NCBI GenBank assembly: GCA_027491435.1
Contig: JAOZFG010000004.1
Coordinates: 202,626-266,625 of the forward strand
Direction of reading: 5' to 3'
Source: Thermoproteota archaeon
Lineage (GTDB): Archaea > Korarchaeota > Korarchaeia > Korarchaeales > Korarchaeaceae
Length of the DNA: 64,000 nt
The translations under genes and the position numbers were made by a program. The notes under the pieces were generated by a model. That model was given only the letters and a program-made list of their open reading frames with translations, did no database searches and was not told the DNA's origin. Numbering within the stretch: position 1 is the first letter of the stretch; the number at the start of each line of letters is the position of its first letter. Of this stretch, positions 1 to 16,390 are shown one piece after another.

Positions 1-285
1 GCTGGCCACGTTACCTCCGTAGTACCTGATCACCTTGACTATCTCGTCGTAATCAAGCCCCTCTCCCTCTATGACAAGCCTCAACCTCTCTATGTTAGAG
101 TCGTAGTCCTTAACCTCTATGTCAACCCTCGTGACGTTCTTGAGCTCGGACAACCCCTCCGCTATGTCAACTATCGAGGGGTTGTGGGGCTTCACGACGT
201 CCAAGACCAACCTCTTAACGACGACCCTTTTTTCCTCATCGTCCTCAGAAGACGGGGCTTTGAATCCCAGCAACTCTTCTATCAT
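1..285 (-). CDS. DUF211 family protein (3' end runs off the window)
   Basis: Manual translation from ATG 285: MIEELLGF...VKRLVLDVVKPHNPSIVDIAEGLSELKNVTRVDIEV..., matching the RLVLDVxKP signature; G-rich SD upstream; not in the ORF track. Confidence 0.8.
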   Translation of the reverse strand, partial: MIEELLGFKAPSSEDDEEKRVVVKRLVLDVVKPHNPSIVDIAEGLSELKNVTRVDIEVKDYDSNIERLRLVIEGEGLDYDEIVKVIRYYGGNVAS

Positions 286-323
286 CCCCCCGTCTCCCTG
301 GAGGGGAGAGCTTAATTAATTTT

Positions 324-665
324 TCACCTCGTCGATTTCCTCAACTCCATGAAGAGTCGGGCTATTATCTTATTTACGGTCCTTCGGTTCCCTCCTTTAA
401 GCCTGATGACCTTAACCCTGCTTTCGTATCCTTCCGGTACTTCAAAGTCCTTGGAGAATGTGGCTATTATCTTTATTCCCCTCTTCAGGCAGTAGTCCAG
501 TATCTCCTCCTTGCGCCTGTTCCTACCCCTTACTGCACTCCTGGGTTGCCAGACAGCCCCATAACCTAGCATGTTTAACCTCCTCTGCACGCTGAAGTAT
601 AGGTCCCTAGGTACCGTCCTATCGAAGAAGAAAGGCGTCTTATACCTGGGCCTCCTCTTGGGCAT
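324..665 (-). CDS. Small PIN-like (DUF5615/Mut7-C-like) protein
   Basis: FFFD near N-terminus, EEILDYC helix and IATFSKDF resembling TxDxDF; overlaps dtdA end. Confidence 0.5.
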   Translation of the reverse strand: MPKRRPRYKTPFFFDRTVPRDLYFSVQRRLNMLGYGAVWQPRSAVRGRNRRKEEILDYCLKRGIKIIATFSKDFEVPEGYESRVKVIRLKGGNRRTVNKIIARLFMELRKSTR

Positions 666-1455
666 CTCTAAGTAACTTCTTGACCCTTACTCTTTTTAAC
701 CCCAGCTCGTCAAGGGCATCTTCTATTCTGCGCCTGTCATCGCCTCTTAATCCTTTAGCGTCCACTATTGCCAAAGAGGGCTTCTCCCCATTCCTATCGA
801 TGGCCATCTCTATCATAACCTTGTCTACGTGACCGGCGTCGTGCTTACGAGCCGCATGCCCTATCGCTATGTCAGTCATAAGCTCCACCTTGGTGAAGTG
901 ATCGTTCACATGGGGCCCGCCGAAGGCTATTGCTGCCCTGTATTTGTAGGGATTCCAAGACTCTAAAGCCTTTATAACTGCTTTAGCCGCGACCTTTATG
1001 GCCTTAGCGTCATTCCACGCCCTCTCATCACATCCTATTTCCAAGAAGGCCATAGGAACGTCCAAAGTCGGGCCATGATGTGTGGGCTCGAAGCCCACCT
1101 CGTAACCTATCTTCTCGGCCCCTTCCTTCACTGAGAGGAGATATTCCTTCATGAGCGAGGGAATCGCCACTCCAAGCTTGTAGGGCTCGCCCCCGTACCT
1201 AGCTGGACCGAAGTTCCCGGGAACGTGAGCTGTAAATATGGGCCTTCCGGGAGTCCCGCTGTGCCTTGAAAGGACGACTAAATAGTCGAACCCAGTGAAC
1301 TCATCGCCCTTCATGTACAGGACCTCCCTCTCGAAGGAAATGAGTTCGTACTTCCTACCAGACAGCGAGAATTGTTCGCCCATCACGGACTTTATCTCCC
1401 TCGCCATGTTGACTCCTGCAACGTCTCTCAACGAGTATAGCAGACCCACTTTCAT
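640..1455 (-). CDS. dtdA: D-aminoacyl-tRNA deacylase (archaeal DTD2)
   Basis: SRHS, TAHVPGN, EPTHHGPT, FLEIG and FGGPH motifs. Confidence 0.92.
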   Translation of the reverse strand: MKVGLLYSLRDVAGVNMAREIKSVMGEQFSLSGRKYELISFEREVLYMKGDEFTGFDYLVVLSRHSGTPGRPIFTAHVPGNFGPARYGGEPYKLGVAIPSLMKEYLLSVKEGAEKIGYEVGFEPTHHGPTLDVPMAFLEIGCDERAWNDAKAIKVAAKAVIKALESWNPYKYRAAIAFGGPHVNDHFTKVELMTDIAIGHAARKHDAGHVDKVMIEMAIDRNGEKPSLAIVDAKGLRGDDRRRIEDALDELGLKRVRVKKLLRDAQEEAQV

Positions 1456-1507
1456 AAACTGGTATACTGGCGACTCTTTTTTAAAGGCGAGCCATCAAAC
1501 TAGCTAG

Positions 1508-2068
1508 ATGGACTTACACAGGGCGATAGCACTCACCATATCCCCCATTACAGTGGCAGCCATAACGTCGGCGACCCTACTTAAAGGAGTAGACTTGCTG
1601 GTGGCCATGATACTGCTGGTTTTGCTACCTCCAGCTCCAATAGTACTTAAGTCGGTTAGGGATGAGGAAGGATTCGATCTGCTCGTGCCCGATAGGTTCA
1701 TGAGGGGGAAGTTCTTCCTTTTCGCCCTGATCAGCTATTTCCTGGCCACTGCCTACTTTTACCTCAGAAGGGTGACCCTGGGGACCATGCTATCCCTTTC
1801 CTACCTCTTAGTCACGGCCTCCATGTACCTGTTTAACAAGAGGCTCACTAAGGTGAGCGTTCACGCGGCTGGAATAGTGGGTCCTTCGACCCTGCTCACC
1901 TGCGTCGGCAAGTTAGAAGTAGCGGCGGCCCTATGGGCCTTAACCCCTGTGGTGCTCTGGTCTAGGTGGAAGTCCAAATCGCACAGCATGGGTCAGCTGG
2001 CCTTAGGGGTGACTCTGGCCGTAGCCCTGACCCTGCTCGTCTACTGGACTTTCCTCCCAGTATTTTAG
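1508..2068 (+). CDS. PAP2-superfamily membrane phosphatase-like protein
   Basis: About 6 TM segments; KVSVH and WSRWKSKSHS resemble PAP2 C2/C3 motifs. Confidence 0.65.
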   Translation: MDLHRAIALTISPITVAAITSATLLKGVDLLVAMILLVLLPPAPIVLKSVRDEEGFDLLVPDRFMRGKFFLFALISYFLATAYFYLRRVTLGTMLSLSYLLVTASMYLFNKRLTKVSVHAAGIVGPSTLLTCVGKLEVAAALWALTPVVLWSRWKSKSHSMGQLALGVTLAVALTLLVYWTFLPVF

Positions 2069-2824
2069 AAACAGGTCCTTAGACACTCTGTAGTAGATGT
2101 ACTCGCTCACATGGGGCTCTAAGGTGACGGTGCCCTTGTATCCAACGTCCCTTATCCTTCCTATTACCTCATGCCACGGTATCTTGCCGGCGCCAACGGG
2201 TAAGTGGAGGTCCCTCCTCATGTCATTATCATGGACGTGTATGTGGAGGATCCTGTTTGCGAGGCGCAAGTAGGACTTGAACTTGTCTAACCCCCCGTTA
2301 ATGAACGAATGGGCGACGTCAAATGTCATCCCTAAGTCAGGGATGTTATCCAGCAAGTACCTTATGTCAGATGGTGAGGAGAAGGCGCCGTGATCGACGT
2401 TCTCCACTAAGGGTAGTGAGCTATAGTTCTTGCTCAAGACCACTATCTCTCTAAAACCCTTCAAGTTGTACTCGCGAGCCTTATCCCTAACCGCGGCCAG
2501 CCAACCTGGAGTAAACGGGTGAAATGTTACGTAGGGGGACTCTATCCTGTCAGCAACTCTGAGGATCTCCTCTGCCACCTTCAAGGCCCCCCTCCTCACG
2601 TGCTCGTAGGGATGGCCTATCTCCAGGTACCAGGGCGCGTGTACTAGGAAGAAGGCGCCGGTGGAAGAGACGTCAGACAACCACCTCATCATTGATTCGT
2701 CTACTGTTCCCTTGGGCCATTCAACTGTTATCTCAACGTATTCAAATCCCAAGGACAATATAGATTCCACCTCGTCCTTAAGAGGGAGGTGCGGGTTGTT
2801 CATCACGCCGAACATTAAGTCCAT
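2003..2824 (-). CDS. Sugar phosphate isomerase/epimerase (AP endonuclease 2 TIM-barrel) family protein
   Basis: VHAP, VEN, FDVAH, HIHVHDN, DLHLPVGAG and LEP metal-binding motifs. Confidence 0.85.
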   Translation of the reverse strand: MDLMFGVMNNPHLPLKDEVESILSLGFEYVEITVEWPKGTVDESMMRWLSDVSSTGAFFLVHAPWYLEIGHPYEHVRRGALKVAEEILRVADRIESPYVTFHPFTPGWLAAVRDKAREYNLKGFREIVVLSKNYSSLPLVENVDHGAFSSPSDIRYLLDNIPDLGMTFDVAHSFINGGLDKFKSYLRLANRILHIHVHDNDMRRDLHLPVGAGKIPWHEVIGRIRDVGYKGTVTLEPHVSEYIYYRVSKDLFLKYWEESPVDEQGQGYGQSHP

Positions 2825-2979
2825 CTAGCTCCCCCTAATTTGAGTAAATCCCGGTAGGGGTCATAACCCTGACCTAGTAAAAACGTAGCTGACCTCCTCA
2901 GCAGGTGAGACGTGACCTCTAATACGGGGCCCCGACAAGAGGGGTCATAATTTTAACTGAAGGACGACGACTAACCCAG

Positions 2980-4188
2980 ATGAACTTATACGAAGCTGTG
3001 CTGGCTAGCGTGTTAGAGTGGTTCCCAGTACAGCCTACAGGCTCCGGACACTTAGCTGGTTTAGCTGGTTTACTCTTACTGAAGGAAAGGAGGATCTCAA
3101 AGGGAAGCGCGATCACTGGGCTGATTACATCAGCGGTTCTAGCTGTGATGGTAGGTTGGTGGGCCAATTACGAGGACGAAGTTATAGGAGGCCTTCTAGG
3201 GGTGGGACTGTCTGTTATAGGCCTATTCGCCCTATTCTTCCTAAAGTTAAACCTTCTCGCTGTTGAAGAGGGCAGATCCCCTGACGTGATGGACGCCTTC
3301 GTCTCCGGCTTTGCCCAAGGGATTAGCACGATAGGTTTCGGTGGAACGGGCCTCTCCATAGCCCTGCTGACCTCTTCAGGGGTGAACTTCAAAGACGCCG
3401 TGCTGCTCTCCTCAATAACATCGATTCCAGTGGCTCTAGTAACCATTAGACTCACTCCCGCGTCGCTAGCCCAATTAGCTTTAGGAGCCCTGATATCGCT
3501 GTCTCTTCACAAAATCGACGTCAAAGCAACTAAAGTAGGCCTGATGTACGACCTAATGATTTTAATGAACCTGAACCAGGTGTGGAAAGTTCAGGAGAGG
3601 ATGGAGTTCTATCAGCAGGTAGAAGAGGAGATAGTCGGCTGGGTTAAGAAGTACGGGGGCGCAGGAGTCTTCATGGCTATGGTAGCACAATCAGTAATTT
3701 CCCCTATACCTGCTGACGCCGTCTTAGTGGCCGCTGGAGCTCTTGGACTTTCTCCTATAGAAGTTGGGATATACGGTGGGCTGGGAATAGTGATTGGTTC
3801 GATGGTGAATTACGGCATAGGTAGGATGTTCGGGAAGAGGTTACTGGACTCTTACTTCAAGGAGGAGTTCTTAGAGGAAGTCCACAAGTGGTTTGACAAG
3901 TGGGGGGGCTGGATAGTCTTCTTTTCGAGGCTAATACCTTTTCTTCCAATAGATATAATCTCTTACGTGGCGGGCGCAACCTACATGAACCCGCTTGTGT
4001 TCTTCATGTCCAACTTGCTGGCCGTGGTGCCTAGAGCCATGTTCTTCGGGTACGTCGGCGAGATGCTTATGAAGGGCAGGTGGGAAATGCTAATAGCGGC
4101 CCTGGCCTTAATAGTTGGAGGGGCCCTAATAGGCTACAAGGTGCAGAGAAGGAGAAGGTCTAAGGGGCCCGTAGCTCAGCAAGGATAG
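2980..4188 (+). CDS. Fusion of degenerate UppP/BacA-like domain and DedA/VTT (SNARE-associated) domain
   Basis: N-terminal LEWFPVQPTGSGHL and DAFVSGFAQG resemble BacA motifs; C-terminal PIPAD, YGIGR and FFSRLIPFLP are DedA motifs. Confidence 0.75.
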   Translation: MNLYEAVLASVLEWFPVQPTGSGHLAGLAGLLLLKERRISKGSAITGLITSAVLAVMVGWWANYEDEVIGGLLGVGLSVIGLFALFFLKLNLLAVEEGRSPDVMDAFVSGFAQGISTIGFGGTGLSIALLTSSGVNFKDAVLLSSITSIPVALVTIRLTPASLAQLALGALISLSLHKIDVKATKVGLMYDLMILMNLNQVWKVQERMEFYQQVEEEIVGWVKKYGGAGVFMAMVAQSVISPIPADAVLVAAGALGLSPIEVGIYGGLGIVIGSMVNYGIGRMFGKRLLDSYFKEEFLEEVHKWFDKWGGWIVFFSRLIPFLPIDIISYVAGATYMNPLVFFMSNLLAVVPRAMFFGYVGEMLMKGRWEMLIAALALIVGGALIGYKVQRRRRSKGPVAQQG

Positions 4189-4239
4189 AGCGGCGGCCTT
4201 CGGAGCCGCAGGTCGGGGGTTCAAGTCCCCCCGGGCCCG
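4165..4239 (+). tRNA. tRNA-Arg (anticodon TCG), intronless, CCA not encoded
   Basis: Acceptor GGGCCCG/CGGGCCC, D arm TAGCTCAGCAAGGATAGAGC, anticodon arm GCGGC-CTTCGGA-GCCGC, T arm GGGGG-TTCAAGT-CCCCC; followed by a T-run. Confidence 0.96.
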
Positions 4240-4387
4240 TTTTTGCTCCAACCCTTAGCTGGACCCGCTATTTTAAGAGCTGACGGGCGCGGGCCTTCCT
4301 AAATTCAGTTTACTATACAACGAATATAATGTAAAAGGAATACATTAAAAAACAAAATATAAAAACTAGGGGGAGGCCGGCTGACCT

Positions 4388-4618
4388 TTACTTCTTCCAG
4401 ATAGCCTCGACGGCAAGCTCTATATCCCTGTCGGTTACGGTCTTCCTTTTGGCATGCCTAGCAAGGTCAACAGCATACTTGCTGACCTCATGGGCGAACT
4501 TCTCAAGGTAGTAGGCCAGTCTGGCCTTGGCCTCATCGCTAACCCTCTCGGCACCGGCCTCCTTAATTATCCTATATATGGGAGCTAGGGGTAGGTGCTT
4601 GGTCGGCCGCTGGGGCAT
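4388..4618 (-). CDS. Archaeal histone (HMf family)
   Basis: LPLAPIYRIIKEAGAERVS...HAKRKTVTDRDIELA; ATG 4618 chosen because GAGGTGA SD lies just upstream. Confidence 0.95.
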   Translation of the reverse strand: MPQRPTKHLPLAPIYRIIKEAGAERVSDEAKARLAYYLEKFAHEVSKYAVDLARHAKRKTVTDRDIELAVEAIWKK

Positions 4619-5269
4619 ACGTCTCACCTCTTAACAAACCCTACTATAGGGCTACGTATTCTCGTGGATGGATAAATATAAGTATTTCCCATGAGGGTGC
4701 ATCTCCACCTCCATAAAATCGGGTGAAACAGTTTCAACCAGCATCATGATGGGATCAGGTGAAATTATGGGAATTAAGGGGTCAAATCACCTGAGAGCTA
4801 GTATCATATATATCATCAATTATACCAAGAATTACAATCTAAAATAATATTATCCCAATTTAGTAACTATTATTTTTGTTAATAGTTATTGTTTACCTAA
4901 TTATGTTGATAAGCTCTCTCAATCATTGGATGATCGGTAGAGTCGCCATATGCCGCTATTTCATAGTTATATAAGTAGTTGGATGTATGATCATCGAGCA
5001 TTTGATTCAGGAAGCTTCATAAAGGATATGGCCTACATATGACAGTCACATGGTTAATGGAGCCTCTAATGACGATTATCAAAAAATATAATAATATTGG
5101 AAAATTTAATTAATTATATAAAATTAAAATGTTGACAGATGGACTCTAATTGGTCAATAAACTCCCGCAGGATCTAATTATGTTCCAAGCCGAACGGAGA
5201 TGCCAGAGCCACCACATGTCGGAACGGCACCAATAAATAGGGCCGTGTGGCCATGGAAGTGGGGATCAA

Positions 5270-5953
5270 ATGGAGAGTAAGGTGGCCATTCTCTGCTCAA
5301 CTGATTTCTTTTGGGGGACTGAGCCGGTCGATTTGATAAATTTTCTAAGAAAAAGCGGGTGTGATGGCATAATTTTGTCAACAGAACCTCCTCACTATTT
5401 CCCGCCTAACATGAACAAGGCAACCCTTTTAGAGCTGAGGGCCCTCCTTAAGAGGTTTGAGGGGATAGTGACCGTTAGAGCTCCCACAACAGATGTTAAC
5501 ATGTTTTCGAAAAATCCTTATGTGGCAAAAGCATCTCTCCAGTCCATACTTGAGGGAATTAACCTGGCAGCCAAGCTGGACCCTGACTTCGTTATAGTGA
5601 GGCCGAGTTACAGGCCTGTGGAGATGTCCCCTTACAACACCCACAAACTCAAGTCGCTGATCCAGAGGATCCCCCGTAGCATGTATGTGGCTTTTGAACT
5701 GTTCAACTCGCCAGAAGACCTCTCAATATTTGATGAGAGGACTGCATTAATTTCAGTGGCCGGGTACAGACCCGCTAGGCGGAGGGTCGTGGGAGTGGCC
5801 TACGAAGTTGAGGGTCCAGAGGAGATGAGGCTGATCCCCGGAATAACGTCCTTGAAGTACATGCTCCTTTACCCGAAGAGGAGGTTAATGGACCCAGATT
5901 TCCTGAAAAAAATAGTTGTTAGGGCGAGGGAGCTGAGGGAGAGGATCATTTAG
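5270..5953 (+). CDS. Degenerate AP endonuclease 2/sugar isomerase TIM-barrel protein
   Basis: N-terminal half (VRAPTTDVNMFSKNPYV...SILEGINLAAKL) follows the family pattern, but the metal-binding His/Asp residues are missing. Confidence 0.55.
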   Translation: MESKVAILCSTDFFWGTEPVDLINFLRKSGCDGIILSTEPPHYFPPNMNKATLLELRALLKRFEGIVTVRAPTTDVNMFSKNPYVAKASLQSILEGINLAAKLDPDFVIVRPSYRPVEMSPYNTHKLKSLIQRIPRSMYVAFELFNSPEDLSIFDERTALISVAGYRPARRRVVGVAYEVEGPEEMRLIPGITSLKYMLLYPKRRLMDPDFLKKIVVRARELRERII

Positions 5954-6696
5954 AGGTAAACCTCCTGCCTCTCCCATCCCTCCAAAATTCTCTCAATCTC
6001 CTCCTTGATTAGGCCGATCAACCTGTTTGCATACTCCTCAGCTTTTTCAGGTGAAGGCACGAAAACCCTAGTGTTCGGTTCGTAGGTTAGTATGGAGCCA
6101 GGAGCCGGCATGACGGATACTCCTTTGCTGTACTGGTAGACCTCTCCCTCGTCCACATTCCCCTTAACCAGCCTGTGGTCTACAGCCATTATCATGGCCG
6201 TCTCGTCAGTGCCAGCGTGGCCTCCAGGGGTACCAAAAACCTCCTTAGCCACTTCAGAGCCCAGCTCCCACCAATTGATTACGGCGCTCCTAACCCCGTG
6301 TTCCAACCAAGCTCTCTTCATGGCCGATTTTATGGCCTCCATGTGCCCTCCTCCGCCATGTCCGTTTATTATTATCACCTTCTCAAGCCCATTAGCGTGG
6401 AGCTCAACTAGGGCGTCGTAAATCAACGATTCGAAGGTCTCCTTCCTAAGAGTTAGGGACCCCCAGTAGCCGCTGAGGGAGCTGACAACCCCGTACCTTA
6501 TTGGAGGCGCTATAAGGGCGTTCAGGTCCTCAGCTATTCGCTCAGCGATCCACTCAGGTATTAGGAAGTCGGTGCCCAGGGGCAAGTGATTTCCATGGGC
6601 CTCATTTACTCCTACGGGGAGTAGAGCCACATCAGTGTCCTCCAAAGCCTCCCTGAATTCAGGCCAGCTCAAGAGCCACATCCTCCTCTCCATCAC
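5950..6696 (-). CDS. Creatininase-family amidohydrolase
   Basis: PVGxxEAHGNHLPLGTD, NGHGG and HAGTDET motifs. Confidence 0.9.
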   Translation of the reverse strand: MMERRMWLLSWPEFREALEDTDVALLPVGVNEAHGNHLPLGTDFLIPEWIAERIAEDLNALIAPPIRYGVVSSLSGYWGSLTLRKETFESLIYDALVELHANGLEKVIIINGHGGGGHMEAIKSAMKRAWLEHGVRSAVINWWELGSEVAKEVFGTPGGHAGTDETAMIMAVDHRLVKGNVDEGEVYQYSKGVSVMPAPGSILTYEPNTRVFVPSPEKAEEYANRLIGLIKEEIERILEGWERQEVYL

Positions 6697-8027
6697 ATCA
6701 CCTCCTTAAGAAACTCGTCTATAACATCTTCAAGGGTTAGCGGACCTATCTCCTGCAGTTCGTACTTGACGTGCACTGTCGGCTTGTTGACTTTGAGGTA
6801 GCGACCCAGGTCAGTGGGAGTGCCAAGCACTATAGAGTCGGCGGGTATCCTGTTCAATATGTCCTCCAGCTCCTTTATCTGCCTCTTGCTGTAGCCTACG
6901 GCTGGTAGGACCTCCCTAAGGTGGGTGTACTTCTCATAAACCTCCTTGTACGAGCCTGTCACGTAAGGCCTGGGGTCAACGATCTCAGCCCCTAACCTCT
7001 TGGATATCAAGTAACCGGCCCCGTAGCCCATCTCCCCATGGGTCACTGTTGGACCATCCTCGACGACCACTACCCTCTTGCCAGATACCAGATTCGGCTT
7101 GTCCACGATGAAGGGCACGGCAGCCATTATCACCTTGGCCTTCGGGTTCACCTTCCTGACGTTGCTCAACACCTCCTCCACCTGCTCGTTACATGCCGTG
7201 TCCACCTTACTCACTATTATGACGTCGGCCATCCTGACGTTTACGCTTCCTGGCCAATAAGTTAGCTCATGACCAGCCCTCAAGGGATCCACGACGGTTA
7301 TCATGAGGTCTGGCTTGAAGAACGGGAAGTCGTTGTTGCCCCCATCCCACAGAATTACGTCCCCCTCCTTCTCAGCCTCTCTCAACACCTTCTCGTAATC
7401 TACTCCGGCAAGTACAACGTTTCCTAGCCTTATATGGGGCTCATAGTCTTCCCTCTCCTCTATGGTAGCCTCATACCTGTCCAAATCATCCAGACTTGTG
7501 AACTTCTGCACTACCTGTTTTCTAAGGTCTCCATAGGGCATAGGATGCCTTACCACCGCAACCTTTAGCCCCCTGGCCTTCAAGATTTGCGAGACCCTCC
7601 GGCTAGTTGGACTCTTGCCTGCCCCCGTTCTAACCGCCGTTACCGCTATGACTGGCTTTGAGGCCTCTAACATGGTGCTTTTAGGACCTAGGAGCATGAA
7701 ATCAGCTCCATGAGCTTGGGCTAGGGCAGCTCTCTCCATTATGTACTGGTGAGACACGTCGCTGTAGGAGAAGACCACCAGGTCGACGTCGTTCTCCTCA
7801 ATCAGCTTTGGGAGCTCCTCTTCAGGAACTATGGGGATCCCTTCCGGATAAAGTCGGCCCGCCAGCTCTGGCGGATATGTCCGGCCGGCTATCTCAGGCA
7901 GCTGTGCGGCGGTAAAGGCTACTACCCTATAATCCTCGTTATCCCTGAAGAAGACGTTGAAGTTGTGGAAGTCCCTACCGGCCGCACCCATAATTATGAC
8001 TTTCCTTACCATGGTCACCCCCATCAC
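6693..8027 (-). CDS. cDPGS-like P-loop ligase (COG2403), arginine synthetase ArcE-like
   Basis: GAAGRDFHNFN N-terminus, RTGAGKS P-loop, RHPMPYGDL, TIEEREDYEPH, WDGGNND and EDGPT motifs. Confidence 0.85.
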   Translation of the reverse strand: MMGVTMVRKVIIMGAAGRDFHNFNVFFRDNEDYRVVAFTAAQLPEIAGRTYPPELAGRLYPEGIPIVPEEELPKLIEENDVDLVVFSYSDVSHQYIMERAALAQAHGADFMLLGPKSTMLEASKPVIAVTAVRTGAGKSPTSRRVSQILKARGLKVAVVRHPMPYGDLRKQVVQKFTSLDDLDRYEATIEEREDYEPHIRLGNVVLAGVDYEKVLREAEKEGDVILWDGGNNDFPFFKPDLMITVVDPLRAGHELTYWPGSVNVRMADVIIVSKVDTACNEQVEEVLSNVRKVNPKAKVIMAAVPFIVDKPNLVSGKRVVVVEDGPTVTHGEMGYGAGYLISKRLGAEIVDPRPYVTGSYKEVYEKYTHLREVLPAVGYSKRQIKELEDILNRIPADSIVLGTPTDLGRYLKVNKPTVHVKYELQEIGPLTLEDVIDEFLKEVM

Positions 8028-8070
8028 CTACTAGGAAAAGGCTTTAACGTTTACCTGCTCGGGAAAGCCC

Positions 8071-9033
8071 GTGAGGGGAGAGGAAGAGTTAATAGACCTA
8101 ATAAGGGAAATTGTCGGGAGGGACGAGGAAGAGCTTCTGGGAATTGGTAGGGACGACGCTTCAGCGAGGAAATTGGACAAAGGCGTGTACGTGTTCAACG
8201 TAGACTCGCTAGCAGAGTCCTCCGACATGCTTCCTGGCATGAGTTTGAGCGACTTCGGCAGGAAGGCCGTCATCTTCAGCTACTCTGATCTAGCCGCTAA
8301 GGGGGCAAGGCCCCTATTCTTTATGGCATCGCTGACGTTACAGAGATGGAGGTCCACGAGGGATTTTGAGGAGATCATCAGGGGGGTAGAGGAGGGAGCA
8401 CGAGAGTACAACACTCACTTGGTGGGAGGGGATCTAGGCTCCGGGGACGAATTAAATATAGCGGGCTTTGCGGTGGGTAAGGTGGTAAATAAGCTGGTGA
8501 GCAGGTCGGGATCAAAGCCCGGTGATCTAATTTACGTGATAGGGAAATTCGGCCTAACTTGGTTGGCCTTCAAACACCTGCTCGAGGGGATGGAGCTCCC
8601 GAAGAGGTTGGCCTCTAGAGCTCTAAGGTCAGTCTACAGGCCAATCGCTAGGGTCAGGGAGGGCCTCCTAATATCGAGTTATGCCACCTCATGCGTAGAC
8701 AGCAGTGACGGCCTGTACAGGTCCTTAAAGGAGCTATCCAAATCGTCGGGGCATGGATTTAATGTGGAGAGGCTCCCCATAGATGAGGAGGTCCTTAAGT
8801 TCGTCGAGAGGAAGGGAATAGACCCGATGGAGCCAACATTTTACGGCGGCGAGGAGTTCCATCTGGTGTTCACGGTTAGCGAGGATGTGGCCCCGGCGAT
8901 GGAGGCGGACCTGAGGAGAGAGGGGCTCTCCCCAATAGCTATAGGGAGGGTGGTAGAAGGTAAGGGGGTACTATATAAAGGAGAGGAGGTTCCAGCTGGC
9001 GGTTGGAACCACTTCTCTCAATCCAACTCGTAA
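8071..9033 (+). CDS. thiL: Thiamine-monophosphate kinase
   Basis: GRDDA, SDLAAKGA, VGGD, DSSDGL, GGEEFHLVFT and C-terminal GWNHF. Confidence 0.92.
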   Translation: MRGEEELIDLIREIVGRDEEELLGIGRDDASARKLDKGVYVFNVDSLAESSDMLPGMSLSDFGRKAVIFSYSDLAAKGARPLFFMASLTLQRWRSTRDFEEIIRGVEEGAREYNTHLVGGDLGSGDELNIAGFAVGKVVNKLVSRSGSKPGDLIYVIGKFGLTWLAFKHLLEGMELPKRLASRALRSVYRPIARVREGLLISSYATSCVDSSDGLYRSLKELSKSSGHGFNVERLPIDEEVLKFVERKGIDPMEPTFYGGEEFHLVFTVSEDVAPAMEADLRREGLSPIAIGRVVEGKGVLYKGEEVPAGGWNHFSQSNS

Positions 9034-9653
9034 ACCCTCCCTGGTTCAGGCACTATAACCTGGGTCTCCAGCCCCATGGCCTTCACCTTAATTGAGAAGT
9101 CCTCCATCTCCTGAGGCTCCCCGTGTATTGGCACAGATACCAGGGGGACGAGCTCTTTCGCCATTTTTGACGCATCTTTAGGGCTTGCATTGGGGGAAGG
9201 TTTACCTACTGGTAGAAAAGCCACATCAACCGGGGAAAACGCCTGGAAATAAGAGGAGTATCCGGAGCTGTCCCCATGGAATATGGCCTTCCCTCCGACC
9301 TCGATCAGGTATACCAGCGGATGAACCCCCGGGTGAACGGCCCTAAGGGCATGCACTTTAGCGAAGTCCAAGTCCACCATCTCGCCTGCCTTGAGCTTGG
9401 TTAACTTATCGTCAGGAACCTTTCTCCTTATCAGCTTAAAAACGCCCTTATTGACGACTAAGTGGGGCCTATGAGCCTCGTATATAGCCTTTAGGTTCAT
9501 ATAATCGTAATGGCCACTGTGTTCGTGCGTGTAGAGTAGGAGGTCTACTCTATCCACATCGCTGGGCTTCACGAGGTCTCCTGGGTCCACCAATATTGAT
9601 ATTCCCTCAACCTCTAGGAAAACAGCAGAACGCCCTGCCCAGAAGAACTTCAA
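9018..9653 (-). CDS. Metallo-beta-lactamase-fold hydrolase
   Basis: LVDP, THEHSGH (variant HxHxDH), FHGDS and PIHG motifs. Confidence 0.8.
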   Translation of the reverse strand: MKFFWAGRSAVFLEVEGISILVDPGDLVKPSDVDRVDLLLYTHEHSGHYDYMNLKAIYEAHRPHLVVNKGVFKLIRRKVPDDKLTKLKAGEMVDLDFAKVHALRAVHPGVHPLVYLIEVGGKAIFHGDSSGYSSYFQAFSPVDVAFLPVGKPSPNASPKDASKMAKELVPLVSVPIHGEPQEMEDFSIKVKAMGLETQVIVPEPGRVYELD

Positions 9654-10036
9654 TCAGATCCCCTCTTCAACTTGACCAGCTTCCCCGTGTACAGCCTCTC
9701 TAAAACTTCAAGTCCCTCTACAACCTTTCCTAGGTAGCTTACCGGTTCTTTGAGCTTGGCGTCCCTCAACGCTATCACTATCATGCCCTTTGCCGGGGAA
9801 TAGCCGACTTGCCCCTTCCTTAGGAACCTCTTCTCCTTCTCTATCCTGGTCTCTATAGGAAATCTTATGTAGACCAAGTCTTTATCCTTCACGATCATCC
9901 CGGTCCTTGGGAGGTTTCCGAAAATCCTCTCGGAGGTGAAGGGAGAGAGGTGCCTTAAGAGCTCCAGCCTGACCCTATCTTGGCCCTCCTCAATCAATAT
10001 TGTGTACTTCTCAAGCCCTTCCTGTTTAGCTCTCAA
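9650..10036 (-). CDS. Cyclophilin-like fold protein
   Basis: LSPFTSERIFGNLP, GQVGYSP and LGKVVEG pattern; TTG start with GGAGGTG SD; overlaps downstream MBL gene. Confidence 0.65.
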   Translation of the reverse strand: MRAKQEGLEKYTILIEEGQDRVRLELLRHLSPFTSERIFGNLPRTGMIVKDKDLVYIRFPIETRIEKEKRFLRKGQVGYSPAKGMIVIALRDAKLKEPVSYLGKVVEGLEVLERLYTGKLVKLKRGSD

Positions 10037-10207
10037 AAGCTTTAACCACCTCCTACATCGGATGGGAGGTCAAATCAGCCAGTAGAGTGTGAGTGAGGTA
10101 ACTAAATAAAGTTTCCCTTCAGATTCGCGTGCCCACTCAAATCAATTAATTTAACCGGAGAGAGATTGCACGAAATTAACTATAAATTGGGGGGCCTTAA
10201 GGTACCT

Positions 10208-10477
10208 CTAAGATCCCTCAGACTCCCTTTCAACCTTGACTTTTGCCTTGGCCCCTCTATATATCCTCAACCTTGAGTTGCCGTCCACGTAGACGACTAG
10301 TCCCTCCTCCTGGAACTGCCTCAACAACTTCCTAGCGACGCTCACCCTTATGTTGTACTTCATGGCCAGCGACTGAGGGGTCACAACCCTAGCCCTGGAA
10401 ACTTCCTTTCTTATCTGCTCCATGACCTTAGGGGAAACTTCTAGCTCCCTAGTTACCTTCTCAGCCTCGGCGCTCAT
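10208..10477 (-). CDS. rps25e: 30S ribosomal protein S25e
   Basis: KEVSRARVVTPQSLAMKYNIRVSVARKLLRQF...IY winged-helix signature. Confidence 0.88.
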   Translation of the reverse strand: MSAEAEKVTRELEVSPKVMEQIRKEVSRARVVTPQSLAMKYNIRVSVARKLLRQFQEEGLVVYVDGNSRLRIYRGAKAKVKVERESEGS

Positions 10478-10567
10478 ACCGACACCGGGTTATCCACAAC
10501 ACGTCAGTATAAAAACTCGCCGCCTGACGCGTGGAACTAGAAAATTAGGGAAAGGGGATTGCTCCCC

Positions 10568-11674
10568 CTACTCAGATCCCTTCTCGGCCTTATAGCCGAC
10601 AACCTTGTCCTTGATCTCCTCAATTCTCTTCCTAGAAAGTGGCAGCTCTGGGCGCTCCGGCAGTATTCCCTGAGGCCTGAAGAGGGCTATGAGTACTATT
10701 ATTGAACCTATTAACATGTACTCAAGCCAGTTCGGGTTTATTGGTATGTAGTTGGTCAGCTCCGACTTGTAAGCGTATATCAAGCTCCTGAATATTGAGA
10801 ATATCAGAGTTCCCAAGACTATGCCGTAGTTGTTACCGGTCCCCCCTAACATCATGAAGGCCCATGGCCAGAAGGTCCAGGTCAACCTGTTGTAAGTCAG
10901 GGCCTTAAAGCTACCGGTGTATGTGGCCCAAAGGGCTCCTCCTATAGCTGCTAGAGCTCCACCTATTATAAGGGCTTGAGCCCTCAGCTTAACTATGTCC
11001 TTGCCGTACACCTTAGCGGCCAGCTCATTATCCCTCATGGCCTTGAGGGCCCTTCCAAACGGGGACTTAGCCAAGCTCTGAACGTAAATTAGAACTAGTA
11101 TTGCTATCCCCAGTATTATCATGGTGCTCCCAAGGTACTTTATCTTACCTGTGCCAACGAACCTGAACAGGTCGGGGACAACTATACCAGCAGTACCGCC
11201 AGCTAGCGGGTCATAGTACTTCCCTATTATCTGGAGAGCGTCTCCGAAGGCGAGGAGGGTTATCCCTAGGTAAGCCTCTTTAAGCCTTATGGCAGGGTAC
11301 GAGACTATGTAGCCTATGAAGCCGCCAAAGGCTGCAGCTATTATCAGGGACATGATCAACATAGCTATTGAGAGTCCAGGATTCTGGGAGAATATTGAGT
11401 TCAGCTTCTCCACTATCTGTAGGTTCTGATCCCCTACGTATTCCACGCCCCAAGGCATTCCGAACATGGCCGCCATTATCCTTCCTGCTATCGCTCCAGC
11501 AGCTATCGCTCCAGCTAGTACAGCAAGCACCCTGCCGAACTGAGGTATGCCGGCGAACCCAGTCTCTAGGTTAAGGCTCAGGGTCACTATAAGGAATATG
11601 GCCATGTTTATTAGAATGCTTAACAGGAGTGGGTTAGTTAGTAAGTCCAACACATCGCTCAACATAGGAATCAC
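10568..11674 (-). CDS. livM: Branched-chain amino acid ABC transporter permease LivM-like
   Basis: SLNLETGFAG, RLKEAYLGITL, SPFGRALKAMRDNE and LGGTGN motifs. Confidence 0.9.
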   Translation of the reverse strand: MIPMLSDVLDLLTNPLLLSILINMAIFLIVTLSLNLETGFAGIPQFGRVLAVLAGAIAAGAIAGRIMAAMFGMPWGVEYVGDQNLQIVEKLNSIFSQNPGLSIAMLIMSLIIAAAFGGFIGYIVSYPAIRLKEAYLGITLLAFGDALQIIGKYYDPLAGGTAGIVVPDLFRFVGTGKIKYLGSTMIILGIAILVLIYVQSLAKSPFGRALKAMRDNELAAKVYGKDIVKLRAQALIIGGALAAIGGALWATYTGSFKALTYNRLTWTFWPWAFMMLGGTGNNYGIVLGTLIFSIFRSLIYAYKSELTNYIPINPNWLEYMLIGSIIVLIALFRPQGILPERPELPLSRKRIEEIKDKVVGYKAEKGSE

Positions 11675-12630
11675 CTCCTCTTTAACTTACTGAAGACCTT
11701 CTCCCAGTTTATCCCTGCCAATCCCTGCGGGTATACTAGGAGCGTGGCGGCCATGGCGAGTAGAGGGATCAAGGGCTCATAGACCACTAGTTGCCTACCG
11801 AAGATGCTGGCTATTAAGTTTATCAGAATGTACTCGCTAAGGCCTATCAGATATCCGCCTAGAAAGGACCCGTATATGGAGTAGAGACCACCGACTATGG
11901 AGGCAGCGAACTCAGGAACTATCACCACGTTACCTGTGTATGGGTTGCCACTTATGACTAGGGAAAGGACAGCCCCACCTAGTCCGGCCAAGGCCCCTCC
12001 AACGAACCAGGATACTAAGTATATCACCTCGGTGTTAATTCCTAGGATTGAGGCTAAGTCTGGGTTCTCCACGGTGACTCTGAAAGCTATACCAAACTTG
12101 GTTCTGGTTAGCGTGAAGTAAAAGAACAGCGCTATGGCTACCACTATCAGCACTGATACTATGGTTATCGCCTTCAATTTGAAACCAGCTACCTCGCCCA
12201 ACACCATGTCGTGAGTGGTGAGCACTATTAGCCTTGAGTTAACCTTGTATTCACTCGTCAGATAATCGGCGAACACGTTTATAAATGCAAAGAATATAAG
12301 GTCTATGCCTAGAGTTGACATCATTAAGGTGACCATGTCGGCCCCCTTCTTCAAGAGCCACTTGTTGACTACCACGTAAGTTATGACTCCCAAAATTCCT
12401 GAGAACAGAAAGGCTACTGGGAAGTAATAGTAGGGGTTCCCTCCGAAGAAGACCTTGTAGAGGGAGAATATTATGTAGAAGCCCCACGCCGTCATTGACG
12501 CGTGAGCGAAGTTGAAGGTGCCTGTGGTCATGTAGATTAGCGTAATACCAGCAGCTGCGAGGGCTATTCCCCCGGAGTAGCCTATGGCCGTCATGATCAC
12601 CTGAATGAAAGAGCTTGAAACCATCAGCAT
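11671..12630 (-). CDS. livH: Branched-chain amino acid ABC transporter permease LivH-like
   Basis: GITLIY..FNFAH, TKFGIAFR...LASILGIN and IVGG motifs. Confidence 0.9.
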   Translation of the reverse strand: MLMVSSSFIQVIMTAIGYSGGIALAAAGITLIYMTTGTFNFAHASMTAWGFYIIFSLYKVFFGGNPYYYFPVAFLFSGILGVITYVVVNKWLLKKGADMVTLMMSTLGIDLIFFAFINVFADYLTSEYKVNSRLIVLTTHDMVLGEVAGFKLKAITIVSVLIVVAIALFFYFTLTRTKFGIAFRVTVENPDLASILGINTEVIYLVSWFVGGALAGLGGAVLSLVISGNPYTGNVVIVPEFAASIVGGLYSIYGSFLGGYLIGLSEYILINLIASIFGRQLVVYEPLIPLLAMAATLLVYPQGLAGINWEKVFSKLKRR

Positions 12631-12682
12631 ATTTACAACCTCCCGCCGAGGCTGGGGACGTGAATTGTGTCGGACCTACATA

Positions 12683-12690
12683 TTATAAAA
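12683..12690 (-). promoter_or_regulatory. Probable TATA box of livH-livM
   Basis: TTTTATAA on the minus strand about 55 nt upstream of the livH start. Confidence 0.45.
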
Positions 12691-12804
12691 CTTAAAGGTT
12701 TGTCTAAAGGGCCTTAAAGCCTGTTTTCTAGGTCCCGTTTACCTGATACTCAAAATCTAATACTTTTGGGTTCGAAAACGCTTCCGAAAGCCCCCGCTTA
12801 CATA

Positions 12805-12820
12805 GAAACGGTTATATATA
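12805..12820 (+). promoter_or_regulatory. Probable BRE-TATA promoter of livK
   Basis: GAAACGG-TTATATATA about 55 nt before the ATG; GGGGTGA SD directly before the ATG. Confidence 0.5.
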
Positions 12821-12872
12821 ACACTTCCCTCGATGCCCGGGGTTATTCCCCGACGTATGATGGGGTGATATT

Positions 12873-14276
12873 ATGTCCCAGAAAACCGCCTACGTACTCA
12901 TGTTAGTACTCCTTCTAGTGGGCATTGGAATAGGATACGCCATCGGAGGTGGAGGAGGCGCTGCCAAGACCGTCACCGTCACCGGTCCTGCCAAGACTGT
13001 CACAGTCACGATTACCAAGACCGCTGCCACAACTCCTGCTAAGACCACCACCCAAGCTCCAGCAAGCAAGCTCAAGGGTGAGATACCCATAGGGGCTCTG
13101 CTCGGCCTGACTGGAGGTTTGTCTTCCTACGGAGAGAATAGCAAGGCAGCCTTGGAGCTGGCTGAGAAGGAGATAAATGACTGGCTCGCCTCTAAGGGAG
13201 CTGCCTGGAGGATAAAGGTCTACTATGAGGACACCGCCACTGACCCCAAGACCGCTCTGGACAAGGTTCAGGCCCTGCAGGCCAGAGGCGTCAAGATATT
13301 CATAGGTCCCATGAGCAGCGCCGAGGTTAAGGAGATAAAGAGCTACGCAGATAGCAACAAGTTGCTGATAATATCCCAGTCCTCAACTTCACCTAGGCTG
13401 GCCATACCCAACGATATGATATACAGGTTCTGTCCCACCGACGAGATACAGGGTCCTGCCACCGCCACTGCTATGTATGAGTTGGGAGTTAGGTACGTCG
13501 TCCAGGTCTGGAGAGGCGACGAGTGGGGTGACGCTCTAGCCGCTAGGATAGACGAAGACTTCGAGGCCATACTTAAGAAGAAGGGTGAGCAGGGCGAGAT
13601 ATACGGCAAGAAGAACGGCAAGGGTATAAGGTATGACCCGCAGGCCGCTGAGTTCTCTGCAGTCGTGGCTCAGCTTGATGCCCTCGTCAGCGAGCTCATA
13701 GACAAGTACGGAGCCGACAAGGTTGGAGTCTCCTTCATAGGGTTCAACGAGTACGTGCAGTTTGCCGCCGTTGCCTCTCAGTACGAGTCCCTCAAGAAGG
13801 TCAAGTGGTTCGGATCTGATGGGACTGCTCTGCTCAGTGAGATAGTTGAGAACAAGGATGCTGCAGCCTTCGGATACGAGACCAAGTTCATAAGCCCGAT
13901 ATTCGGTGCTGAGTCCCCGGTGAAGAAGAAGGTCGAGGAGTACGTCAAGAAGAAGCTCGGTAGGGCACCTGACAGCTACGCCTACGCTGCTTATGACGCT
14001 CTCTGGGCTGTTGCTAAGGCCCTCGATCAGATAGGTGAGTACGATCCCGTTAAGGTCGCCAAGCTCCTGCCCGAGATAGTGAAGAACCTCAACGGAGCCA
14101 CCGGAAACTTCGAGCTCAACGAGAACGGCGATAGGGCCGCTTCAGACTACCTGTTCTGGATGCCCTACAAGAAGTCCGACGGCACCTACGAGTGGAGGCT
14201 TGCCGGCATCTACAAGTACACCACTTCCAGCATGGTCTGGGAGGACTGGTTCTTAAAAGAGATTGGCAGGAAATAA
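12873..14276 (+). CDS. livK: Branched-chain amino acid ABC transporter substrate-binding protein (membrane-anchored, Thr-rich linker)
   Basis: N-terminal TM helix, Thr-rich spacer, IPIGALLGLTG, EDTATDP, GPMSS and AYDA motifs. Confidence 0.9.
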   Translation: MSQKTAYVLMLVLLLVGIGIGYAIGGGGGAAKTVTVTGPAKTVTVTITKTAATTPAKTTTQAPASKLKGEIPIGALLGLTGGLSSYGENSKAALELAEKEINDWLASKGAAWRIKVYYEDTATDPKTALDKVQALQARGVKIFIGPMSSAEVKEIKSYADSNKLLIISQSSTSPRLAIPNDMIYRFCPTDEIQGPATATAMYELGVRYVVQVWRGDEWGDALAARIDEDFEAILKKKGEQGEIYGKKNGKGIRYDPQAAEFSAVVAQLDALVSELIDKYGADKVGVSFIGFNEYVQFAAVASQYESLKKVKWFGSDGTALLSEIVENKDAAAFGYETKFISPIFGAESPVKKKVEEYVKKKLGRAPDSYAYAAYDALWAVAKALDQIGEYDPVKVAKLLPEIVKNLNGATGNFELNENGDRAASDYLFWMPYKKSDGTYEWRLAGIYKYTTSSMVWEDWFLKEIGRK

Positions 14277-14407
14277 ACAAAAATACTCATCTTCTCTATT
14301 TTTATATTGATTGTTATTGACTATATATCATTGATTCGTATATGCTTATACCAAAATTTTACTGATCGATTCCATAAACTTATTATTTATACTGATCGAG
14401 TAGCGAG

Positions 14408-15184
14408 GTGGTGGGCTTGACCAACGAGAAATCCGAGTACATCTTGATCACTGAGAACCTCACCAAGAGGTTCGGTGGGCTAATAGCAGTGAACAATGTG
14501 TCAATTAAGGTTAAGAGGAACTCCCTGACCATGTTGATGGGCCCCAACGGTGCTGGTAAATCCACTTTCGTTAATACTTGTACTGGAGTGCTCAAGCCTG
14601 ATGGAGGGAAGGTAATATTCGACGGCGTCGACATAACTGGATGGCCGCCCCACAAAGTTTACAGGGCCGGCTTCGTGAGAACTTTCCAAATTCCAGCCCC
14701 CTTCCAGAAGCTTACTGTGCTTGAAAACGTGCTTGCTTCAATGAGTCACAGTGGAGAAAGCCCGATAAGGGCTCCAATAAGGCCTCTTTGGATCAAAGAG
14801 GAAGAGGAGAAGGTTGAAAGGGCGTTTGAAATACTGAAGAACGTGGGCCTAGAGGATCACTGGGACGTCGAGGCCTTCAGGCTTGGAGGGGGGCAACTTA
14901 AGATGTTGGAGGTCTCAAGAGCGTTAGCTACGGGAGCTAAGCTAATAGCCCTGGACGAGCCGATAGGAGGAGTGGACCCAGCCTACGCCGGAAACATACT
15001 AACCTACGTGAGCAACTTAAGGAAGAAGTGGGATGTCACCTTCCTGTTGATAGAGCACAGAATAGACATAGCTCTGCCCTTCGCCGATTACGTTTATGTG
15101 ATGGACAGGGGCAAGCTGATAGCGGAAGGCCTACCGGATGAGGTTGCAAATAACCCGAAGGTTATAGAAATATACATAGGGTGA
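14408..15184 (+). CDS. livG: Branched-chain amino acid ABC transporter ATP-binding protein LivG
   Basis: FGGLIAV, GPNGAGKST, RTFQ, LDEP and IEH motifs. Confidence 0.93.
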   Translation: MVGLTNEKSEYILITENLTKRFGGLIAVNNVSIKVKRNSLTMLMGPNGAGKSTFVNTCTGVLKPDGGKVIFDGVDITGWPPHKVYRAGFVRTFQIPAPFQKLTVLENVLASMSHSGESPIRAPIRPLWIKEEEEKVERAFEILKNVGLEDHWDVEAFRLGGGQLKMLEVSRALATGAKLIALDEPIGGVDPAYAGNILTYVSNLRKKWDVTFLLIEHRIDIALPFADYVYVMDRGKLIAEGLPDEVANNPKVIEIYIG

Positions 15185-15188
15185 TCCT

Positions 15189-15905
15189 ATGGTCCTTCTG
15201 GAGACAAAAAATCTTTACTCAGGTTATGGCAAACTCAAGGTTCTTTTTGATATAAACTTCCAAGCCAGGGAGGGGGAGATCACCGTAGTGGTAGGCCCTA
15301 ACGGGGCCGGCAAGACGACCCTTCTTAACAGCATAATGGGCATAGCCACAATTCACAGCGGTAACGTTTACTTTGAGGGACAGGATGTAACTAGAATTCC
15401 CCCCTATAAGAAGGCTAGGATGGGTATCGCCTACCTACCACAGCTAGGCAACGTAGCGGCTGGCTTGAGCGTGGAGGAGAATCTGAAAATAGCTGGTTAC
15501 CTAATGCCTAAGGATGAGGTTCCTGAGAGAGTTGAGGAAATACTTGATATGTTTCCTAAGCTAAGAGAGCTTAGGAAGAGAAAGGCTGGCACTCTAAGTG
15601 GTGGAGAGAGGCGTATGTTGGCTATAGGCATGGCCCTCATGAGGAAGCCCAAAATACTTATGCTGGACGAGATGACCACGGACTTAGCACCAATACTCGT
15701 CAAGCAGGTCCTCAACACAGTAGTTGAGCTGAGGGATGAGCACAAACAGACCATACTCATGGTGGAGCAGCACGCTAAGAGGGCCCTCGAGATAGGGGAC
15801 AGAGGGTACTTGCTGGTCAGCGGTGAGATAAGGTATGAAGGCAACGCTAAGGAACTTCTCGAGCACCCGCAGTTCGCCAAACTGTACCTGGGTATAATAA
15901 GGTGA
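15189..15905 (+). CDS. livF: Branched-chain amino acid ABC transporter ATP-binding protein LivF
   Basis: GPNGAGKTT, AGTLSGGE, LDE and VEQ motifs. Confidence 0.93.
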   Translation: MVLLETKNLYSGYGKLKVLFDINFQAREGEITVVVGPNGAGKTTLLNSIMGIATIHSGNVYFEGQDVTRIPPYKKARMGIAYLPQLGNVAAGLSVEENLKIAGYLMPKDEVPERVEEILDMFPKLRELRKRKAGTLSGGERRMLAIGMALMRKPKILMLDEMTTDLAPILVKQVLNTVVELRDEHKQTILMVEQHAKRALEIGDRGYLLVSGEIRYEGNAKELLEHPQFAKLYLGIIR

Positions 15906-15949
15906 GTGCCCTACCACACACAATCTTTATTAGACTCTAACCTGGGAGT

Positions 15950-16390
15950 GTGGTCGAGGAGATACCCTTGGATAAAGTGGAGGAGATAGGGATAAACTGG
16001 AACAAAATAGCTGAGAGGATCAACGAGGACCCCTATGAATTCTTGGAGATGGGTCCCACCAGAATGAGGAAACTGGTAATGGAGAACCTGAAGCCGCTGG
16101 CGCGCTTCGTCGGTGCCAAGGCAATAGTCTACGAGTGCGGCAAGTGGTACGCTAGAATTGAGAGGGTCGAGCTCGATGAGGACTACCCAGAGGTGAGCGA
16201 GGTGATAGACAAGGAGTGCTATGTATCACTTGAAGACGAAAACGGCTGCGAGGTCGTAGTGCTGGCTATCAGGGAGGACGAGACCGGTGAGTTGGAGGGC
16301 TTTGCCAGGTCGGCTGGCGAAATACTGGAGATCTTCTTGAGGGGGCAGGTCTGTGACAGCCAAGACCTAGACTTCGACGACGCGTGGTGA
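15950..16390 (+). CDS. Hypothetical acidic protein
   Basis: 146-aa ORF with host-like codon usage, 1 nt upstream of the CDF gene. Confidence 0.7.
   Translation: MVEEIPLDKVEEIGINWNKIAERINEDPYEFLEMGPTRMRKLVMENLKPLARFVGAKAIVYECGKWYARIERVELDEDYPEVSEVIDKECYVSLEDENGCEVVVLAIREDETGELEGFARSAGEILEIFLRGQVCDSQDLDFDDAW

Follow-up and report, generated by a model that had tools for sequence, protein, structure and literature searches.

Why should an archaeal gene for an ArcE-like ligase share a two-gene unit with a gene of the creatininase family? The question is raised by a locus in a 64,000-nucleotide stretch of contig JAOZFG010000004.1 (positions 202,626 to 266,625; assembly GCA_027491435.1) from a thermoproteotal archaeon of the Korarchaeaceae, which we call the window. 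A sequence-only reading of this locus had proposed that the hydrolase opens creatinine to creatine and that the ligase then converts creatine to N-carbamoylsarcosine, with a gain of ATP. We instead favor, with a probability of roughly 0.7, an explanation in which the ligase is an ordinary ArcE that works with unlinked arcB and arcC genes, and is accompanied by a coupled hydrolase outside the characterized subfamilies. ArcE would interconvert L-arginine, ADP and Pi with L-citrulline, NH3 and ATP, and would act together with ornithine carbamoyltransferase (OTC; arcB) and carbamate kinase (arcC) as in the known arginine synthetase pathway. What is new is the placement of a known gene, arcE, in an undescribed, lineage-restricted operon with a hydrolase of no characterized subfamily.

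The assignment of the ligase to the ArcE family, which had been made earlier from a GAAGRDFHNFN motif, is borne out. This motif lies at residues 14-24, followed by a P-loop (GAGKS) at residues 135-139, and across 98% of its length the protein shares 64-66% identity with Pyrococcus and Thermococcus sequences. Full-length matches of 62-66% identity are present in 79 of 80 Thermococcaceae genomes, with a single match in each, and the 80th genome carries a fragment at a contig end. More broadly, 99 of 100 genomes of the Thermococci-type phylum have an ArcE match, and a cluster formed at 90% identity (201 members) covers Thermococcus and Palaeococcus species. The characterized representative is TK2200 of Thermococcus kodakarensis, an arginine synthetase described in 2024 (PMC11032458) whose pathway is also treated in PMC13260591. 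With this enzyme the window protein shares full-length orthology, at the level seen for Thermococcales ArcE proteins, as well as the N-terminal motif and the P-loop. The legend to Table 1 of PMC11032458 already lists Candidatus Korarchaeum cryptofilum as a carrier of arcE.

There is no sign of a remodeled substrate site when conserved columns are compared. The GAAGRDFHNFN motif and P-loop are invariant in an alignment of 22 ArcE sequences (A2). Furthermore, of 182 columns with at least 95% conservation among 81 ArcE proteins from outside the Korarchaeota, 52 korarchaeal proteins keep 181 and differ consistently (Arg to His) only at position 419. A role for this column as a specificity switch is ruled out, because the residue varies among three other korarchaeal families (His in f4, Arg in f3 and Asn in f2), all of which lack the pairing of arcE with the hydrolase gene.

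Public annotations of this protein family are less helpful. Pfam yields only a partial CobW-type P-loop match for ArcE, no NCBIfam model scores above its cut-off, and our literature search found no publication on an ArcE structure. The sole relative with a solved structure is cyclic 2,3-diphosphoglycerate synthetase (cDPGS; PDB 9sxb), whose homology is distant and lies within the P-loop domain. The alignment between the two proteins is limited to ArcE residues 213-326 (114 residues, E value 9.4e-10), and the full-length similarity to the solved enzyme that would be expected of a cDPGS is not seen. Close ArcE homologs are nonetheless widely labeled as 'cyclic 2,3-diphosphoglycerate synthase' or 'GTPase' in public records, and the former label is probably a carried-over annotation.

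The known arginine synthetase pathway is complete in the source genome (1.64 Mb, 99.5% complete) because arcE, OTC, carbamate kinase and argG are present and arginine deiminase (ADI) is absent. There is one arcE copy. The OTC gene (368.7 bits versus a cut-off of 280.85) lies outside the arcE unit, arcC (421 bits versus 358) is located about 30 kb before the window at contig positions 171337-172254, and argG scores 513.6 bits, whereas no member of the ADI family was found in this genome. The sequence-only reading had pointed to the lack of OTC and carbamate kinase genes in the window. This holds for the open reading frames (ORFs) of positions 1-16000, the part of the window that was annotated, where there is no carbamoyltransferase or carbamate kinase, but both genes are present elsewhere in the genome. 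Moreover, each of the 32 surveyed Korarchaeota genomes (completeness 80% or higher) contains arcE, OTC and arcC, with arcC above its cut-off in 31. The T. kodakarensis system likewise has one arcE per genome, arcB and arcC, and no ADI. With argG present and ADI absent, ArcE most probably runs in the catabolic direction, in keeping with the logic of the Discussion of PMC11032458, which assigns a catabolic role to arcE in genomes that also have argG.

The arrangement of these genes varies among relatives. In the source genome, arcC follows a topoisomerase gene, and OTC was found once. Many congeneric genomes have OTC directly beside arcC, as an arcB-arcC pair, and a second OTC gene elsewhere. 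The pyrB, pyrI and pyrE genes are found at another site in the source genome.

The hydrolase gene follows arcE so closely that the two genes overlap. As had been claimed before, they form a two-gene unit bounded by oppositely oriented genes (Table 1). The 3' end of arcE reads AAG GAG GTG ATG TGA, and the hydrolase gene can start either at a GTG codon that overlaps arcE by 4 nucleotides or at an ATG codon that overlaps it by 1 nucleotide. A Shine-Dalgarno-like sequence, GGAGGTGA, precedes this start at positions 6698-6705. Database records of ArcE and the hydrolase are 439 and 247 amino acids long, respectively, and the ArcE record is 100% identical. Thus, ATG 8012 and ATG 6693 are the likely starts of the two genes. 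The overlap is not due to chance, because 23 of 26 distinct korarchaeal junctions of this kind permit an NTGA start/stop overlap and the other three have a 1-nucleotide gap. Translation of the hydrolase would therefore be coupled to that of arcE in a two-gene operon. No public sequencing runs are listed that cover window positions 5900-8100, and no holder of RNA is listed.

The second gene, the only creatininase-family gene in the source genome, was correctly placed in this family by the sequence-only reading. Its product matches PF02633 with 162 bits (gathering cut-off 31.3), and a search of a protein atlas returned creatininase-family clusters only. The predicted structure (pLDDT 91.1) has creatininase entries as its best Foldseek matches, with TM scores of 0.74-0.78 at 24-26% identity. 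Residues E32, H34, D43, H113, H160 and E165, which correspond to the metal ligands and the catalytic histidine, are invariant in an alignment of the clade (A1). In a HMMER alignment to PDB entry 1q3k, equivalents of creatininase E34, H36, D45, H120, H178, E183 and W154 are all present, and none of them varies within the clade.

Despite this shared fold and catalytic equipment, the protein differs from Pseudomonas putida creatininase (PDB 1j2t, 1q3k and 3a6d-3a6l) at several residues. In the same HMMER alignment, creatininase residues Tyr121, Glu122 and Trp174, which we take to be substrate-pocket residues, are replaced by Gly114, Gly115 and Thr156. According to PDB entry titles, E122 and W174 are the targets of published mutants. 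Membership tests gave the same result. The model for true creatininase (EC 3.5.2.10, TIGR04448) yields 94.2 bits versus a cut-off of 235. The hydrolase shares PF02633 and a GHGG-type motif with ArfB, MftE and IolN, but falls below the cut-offs of all three: 72.3 bits versus 172 for the mycofactocin peptidase MftE (mftABC genes were not searched), 57.3 versus 245 for IolN (iol genes were not searched) and 20.9 versus 180 for the FAPy deformylase ArfB. A role as ArfB is further argued against because the source genome lacks the riboflavin pathway; neither GTP cyclohydrolase III (GCH_III) nor lumazine (DMRL) synthase was found in the nearly complete assembly. By its sequence and modeled structure, the protein is predicted to be a catalytically intact, creatininase-fold metallo-amidohydrolase outside every characterized subfamily. 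Literature searches on newly described functions of this family gave nothing informative.

The pairing of the two genes is conserved throughout the Korarchaeaceae (five genera, termed f1 below), where every one of 22 loci has arcE directly upstream of the hydrolase gene in the same orientation. A search with the hydrolase alignment found 80 named loci, of which 17 are korarchaeal and overlap the f1 set. All 17 have arcE upstream, including the locus from Methanodesulfokora. Across paired loci, ArcE proteins are 72-87% identical whereas the hydrolases are 46-65% identical. Two relatives carry interrupted genes that may reflect assembly error or decay. In one (C45:94286-95610), arcE is split into adjoining frames that encode residues 2-180 and 181-443, and in the other (C53:8051-8794) the hydrolase gene has one in-frame TGA. 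Our literature search found no publication containing both 'creatininase' and 'arginine synthetase'; the supplementary neighborhood figures of PMC11032458, which lay outside this search, may show the pairing.

Given this gene arrangement, the hydrolase might be an accessory enzyme that is co-expressed with arginine breakdown. Its most plausible task would be to release L-arginine, or a different pathway intermediate, that is blocked as an amide or bound in a peptide or lactam, which we propose because the characterized ArcE accepts free L-arginine only. We assign low confidence to such an accessory role, and a number of observations weigh against the explanation we favor or against a functional link between the two genes. 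The identity of the window protein to the T. kodakarensis enzyme itself is taken from that to its order. The neighborhood conservation that the sequence-only reading had asked about is strong within f1 and was not found beyond it. In the other korarchaeal families (f2-f4), the pairing is seen in none of six arcE loci, which have other neighbors. Among the 63 remaining named loci, from Zixibacteria, Ignavibacteria, WOR-3, Njordarchaeia and other bacterial and Asgard lineages (hydrolase identity 37-44%), none has arcE within 4 kb of the hydrolase homolog. ArcE is present in 167 of 201 Asgard genomes, and 30 Asgard arcE loci inspected over 1.5 kb to either side contain no creatininase-family gene, nitrilase-type gene, OTC or carbamate kinase. 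The arrangement is also not found in 100 genomes of the Thermococci-type phylum, which sets the korarchaeal unit apart from the T. kodakarensis system. When compared by eye, arcE is near a creatininase-family gene in none of the 57 genomes that hold such a gene; the smallest distance within one contig is about 70 kb, and the remaining pairs are split between contigs. The remaining 43 of the 100 genomes lack a creatininase-family gene, and recombinant T. kodakarensis ArcE works alone (PMC11032458). Thus, ArcE needs no partner of this family. Finally, synteny across the Korarchaeaceae extends to thiL, a gene for a metallo-beta-lactamase (MBL)-fold hydrolase and a cyclophilin-like gene, and the conserved adjacency is therefore in part a matter of shared ancestry. 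A complex prediction for ArcE and the hydrolase (alignments A2 and A1) gave a score of 0.00, which counts neither for nor against a complex.

A coincidental operon is nearly as likely as an accessory role. By this account the hydrolase is unrelated to arginine, and is a housekeeping amidohydrolase whose gene ended up downstream of arcE in an ancestor of the Korarchaeaceae and is merely co-transcribed. We regard this as possible, given that the pairing is limited to one family, that neighboring genes are equally syntenic, and that the nearest hydrolase homologs occupy quite different contexts. Specifically, 22 of the 63 non-korarchaeal homologs immediately follow a DUF2064/TIGR04282-like gene that resembles those of glycosyltransferases (median overlap 3 nucleotides) and 14-15 follow a Lactamase_B_3 gene. 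Of five genomes with bacterial or Asgard homologs, four carry arcE, never adjacent to the homolog, but this is uninformative because arcE is common in such lineages anyway. Asgard arcE genes themselves adjoin unrelated genes, with those for proteasome alpha and MsrA recurring. However, coincidence alone sits poorly with two findings: the overlap or 1-nucleotide gap is kept at all 26 distinct junctions although the hydrolases have diverged to 46-65% identity, and neither of the two f1 genomes that lack arcE (each about 70% complete) has an orthologous hydrolase. A more ambitious view is that the hydrolase is a dedicated fourth enzyme of the pathway in the Korarchaeaceae, and that arcE repeatedly recruits coupled, non-homologous C-N hydrolases of the creatininase and nitrilase types. 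An amide or lactam hydrolase would then deliver free L-arginine to the L-arginine-specific ArcE, or clear its product. We consider this view doubtful. It draws on the sister family f3, represented by two genomes from a single korarchaeal genus, where a nitrilase-superfamily gene follows arcE with an 8-nucleotide overlap (Table 1). The protein matches PF00795 with 164.8 bits and resembles Pyrococcus PH0642 (E value 3e-82). A PH0642-like gene is also present in 93 of 100 Thermococci-type genomes, never nearer to arcE than about 13 kb, and the source genome has its own copy away from arcE. The two cases together give only a hint that arcE repeatedly acquires non-homologous C-N hydrolase partners within one phylum.

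The f3 arrangement would also suit schemes in which the hydrolase directly handles a reactant of ArcE. It might act after ArcE on a ureido or amide group, for example by converting citrulline to ornithine, CO2 and NH3, and thereby pull a near-equilibrium reaction forward to give a two-enzyme route from arginine to ornithine. In accord with such a scheme, arcE is coupled in f3 to a different C-N hydrolase, and the standard free energy change (deltaG0') reported for the ArcE reaction is just -6.8 kJ/mol (PMC11032458). However, we judge it unlikely, since the presence of OTC and carbamate kinase in all 32 surveyed Korarchaeota genomes, f1 and f3 included, makes a replacement needless and ATP would be lost. 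Moreover, the nitrilase-like gene never adjoins arcE in the 93 Thermococci-type genomes that have it, and we know of no creatininase-family enzyme that hydrolyzes a ureido group. Very unlikely is a scheme in which the hydrolase is an amidase that supplies NH3 to ArcE in the arginine-forming direction, much as the nitrilase fold serves as the glutaminase domain of NAD+ synthetase NadE; that the f3 partner is a nitrilase-superfamily protein would fit. The use of free ammonia only by ArcE, with a Ks of about 3.7 mM (PMC11032458), would fit as well. Set against this, argG makes the usual route of arginine synthesis available. Also, the creatininase-family reactions known to us release no ammonia.

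The least probable of these schemes is the creatinine pathway from the sequence-only reading, which has the creatininase open the ring of creatinine (or of another cyclic guanidine) and the ArcE-like ligase form ATP by deiminating creatine. Its chemistry has some appeal: a guanidino group is what ArcE acts on, creatinine contains one within a cyclic acyl-guanidine, and the hydrolase has the creatininase fold and catalytic residues. Korarchaeota are known from hot springs, and creatinine is an unlikely substrate for such a host. D-arginine, agmatine, guanidine, Ala-Arg and Arg-Ala were not substrates of the T. kodakarensis enzyme, and creatine is not mentioned among the compounds reported there as tested (PMC11032458). 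This published specificity, the single ArcE with its family-conserved columns intact, the complete arginine pathway, and the failure of the hydrolase to score as a true creatininase or keep its Tyr121, Glu122 and Trp174 together lead us to conclude that the evidence does not support a creatinine/creatine pathway.

An ordinary ArcE with a coupled hydrolase thus remains our preferred explanation, and the locus mainly shows the known arginine synthetase pathway in Korarchaeota. The annotations 'creatininase' and 'cDPG synthase' are misleading here. Coupled to arcE across an entire family, the hydrolase is a concrete and inexpensive subject for biochemical work, which might extend the pathway by one step or reveal the first function in a widespread creatininase-family branch that is so far unstudied.

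Table 1. Features of the arcE-hydrolase locus, its surroundings in the window, and the arcE loci of korarchaeal family f3 (window positions unless a locus is named).
Feature	Position	Strand	Remarks
arcE, arginine synthetase ortholog	6693..8027	-	444-aa ORF from GTG 8027; likely start ATG 8012, giving 439 aa
Creatininase-family (PF02633) amidohydrolase, predicted binuclear-metal enzyme	5950..6696	-	248-aa ORF; likely start ATG 6693, giving 247 aa
Coupling junction	6693..6705	-	TGA stop of arcE at 6695-6693; the hydrolase start codon, GTG 6696 or ATG 6693, overlaps it
thiL (thiamine-phosphate kinase)	8071..9033	+	Divergent flank of the unit; TIGR01379 217.5 bits versus cut-off 184.15
227-aa conserved gene	5270..5953	+	Convergent flank, 4-nt overlap with the unit; cluster 11 in 13/17 korarchaeal loci
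arcE and nitrilase-type gene, family f3	L118:1171-3334; L119:2172-4335		PF00795 match
Lactamase_B_3 gene	9018-9653	-	Two genes from the unit
PF01261 gene	2003-2824	-	Clear match
D-aminoacyl-tRNA deacylase, archaeal type	640-1455	-	PF04414, 206.5 bits
Ribosomal protein S25e gene	10208-10477	-	
Branched-chain-amino-acid-type ABC importer cluster	10568-15905		Two permease-like genes on the - strand

Several genes around the unit are listed with it in Table 1. The convergent flanking gene resembles the xylose-isomerase-like TIM barrel family PF01261 only weakly and below threshold (23.4 bits versus a cut-off of 31.1), and a second gene in the window matches this family clearly. A PF01261 gene is also located directly upstream of arcE in 3 of the 30 Asgard loci, and the shared proximity is probably a coincidence. 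The Lactamase_B_3 gene near the unit encodes a protein that is only 23-28% identical to those of the bacterial Lactamase_B_3 genes beside hydrolase homologs. Further away, the window carries genes for an archaeal-type D-aminoacyl-tRNA deacylase and ribosomal protein S25e. The ABC importer cluster is composed of a gene for a periplasmic binding protein (PF13458/PF01094), two permease-like genes, named from their sequences, and two ATPase-like genes. This cluster fits a lifestyle based on the fermentation of peptides and amino acids.

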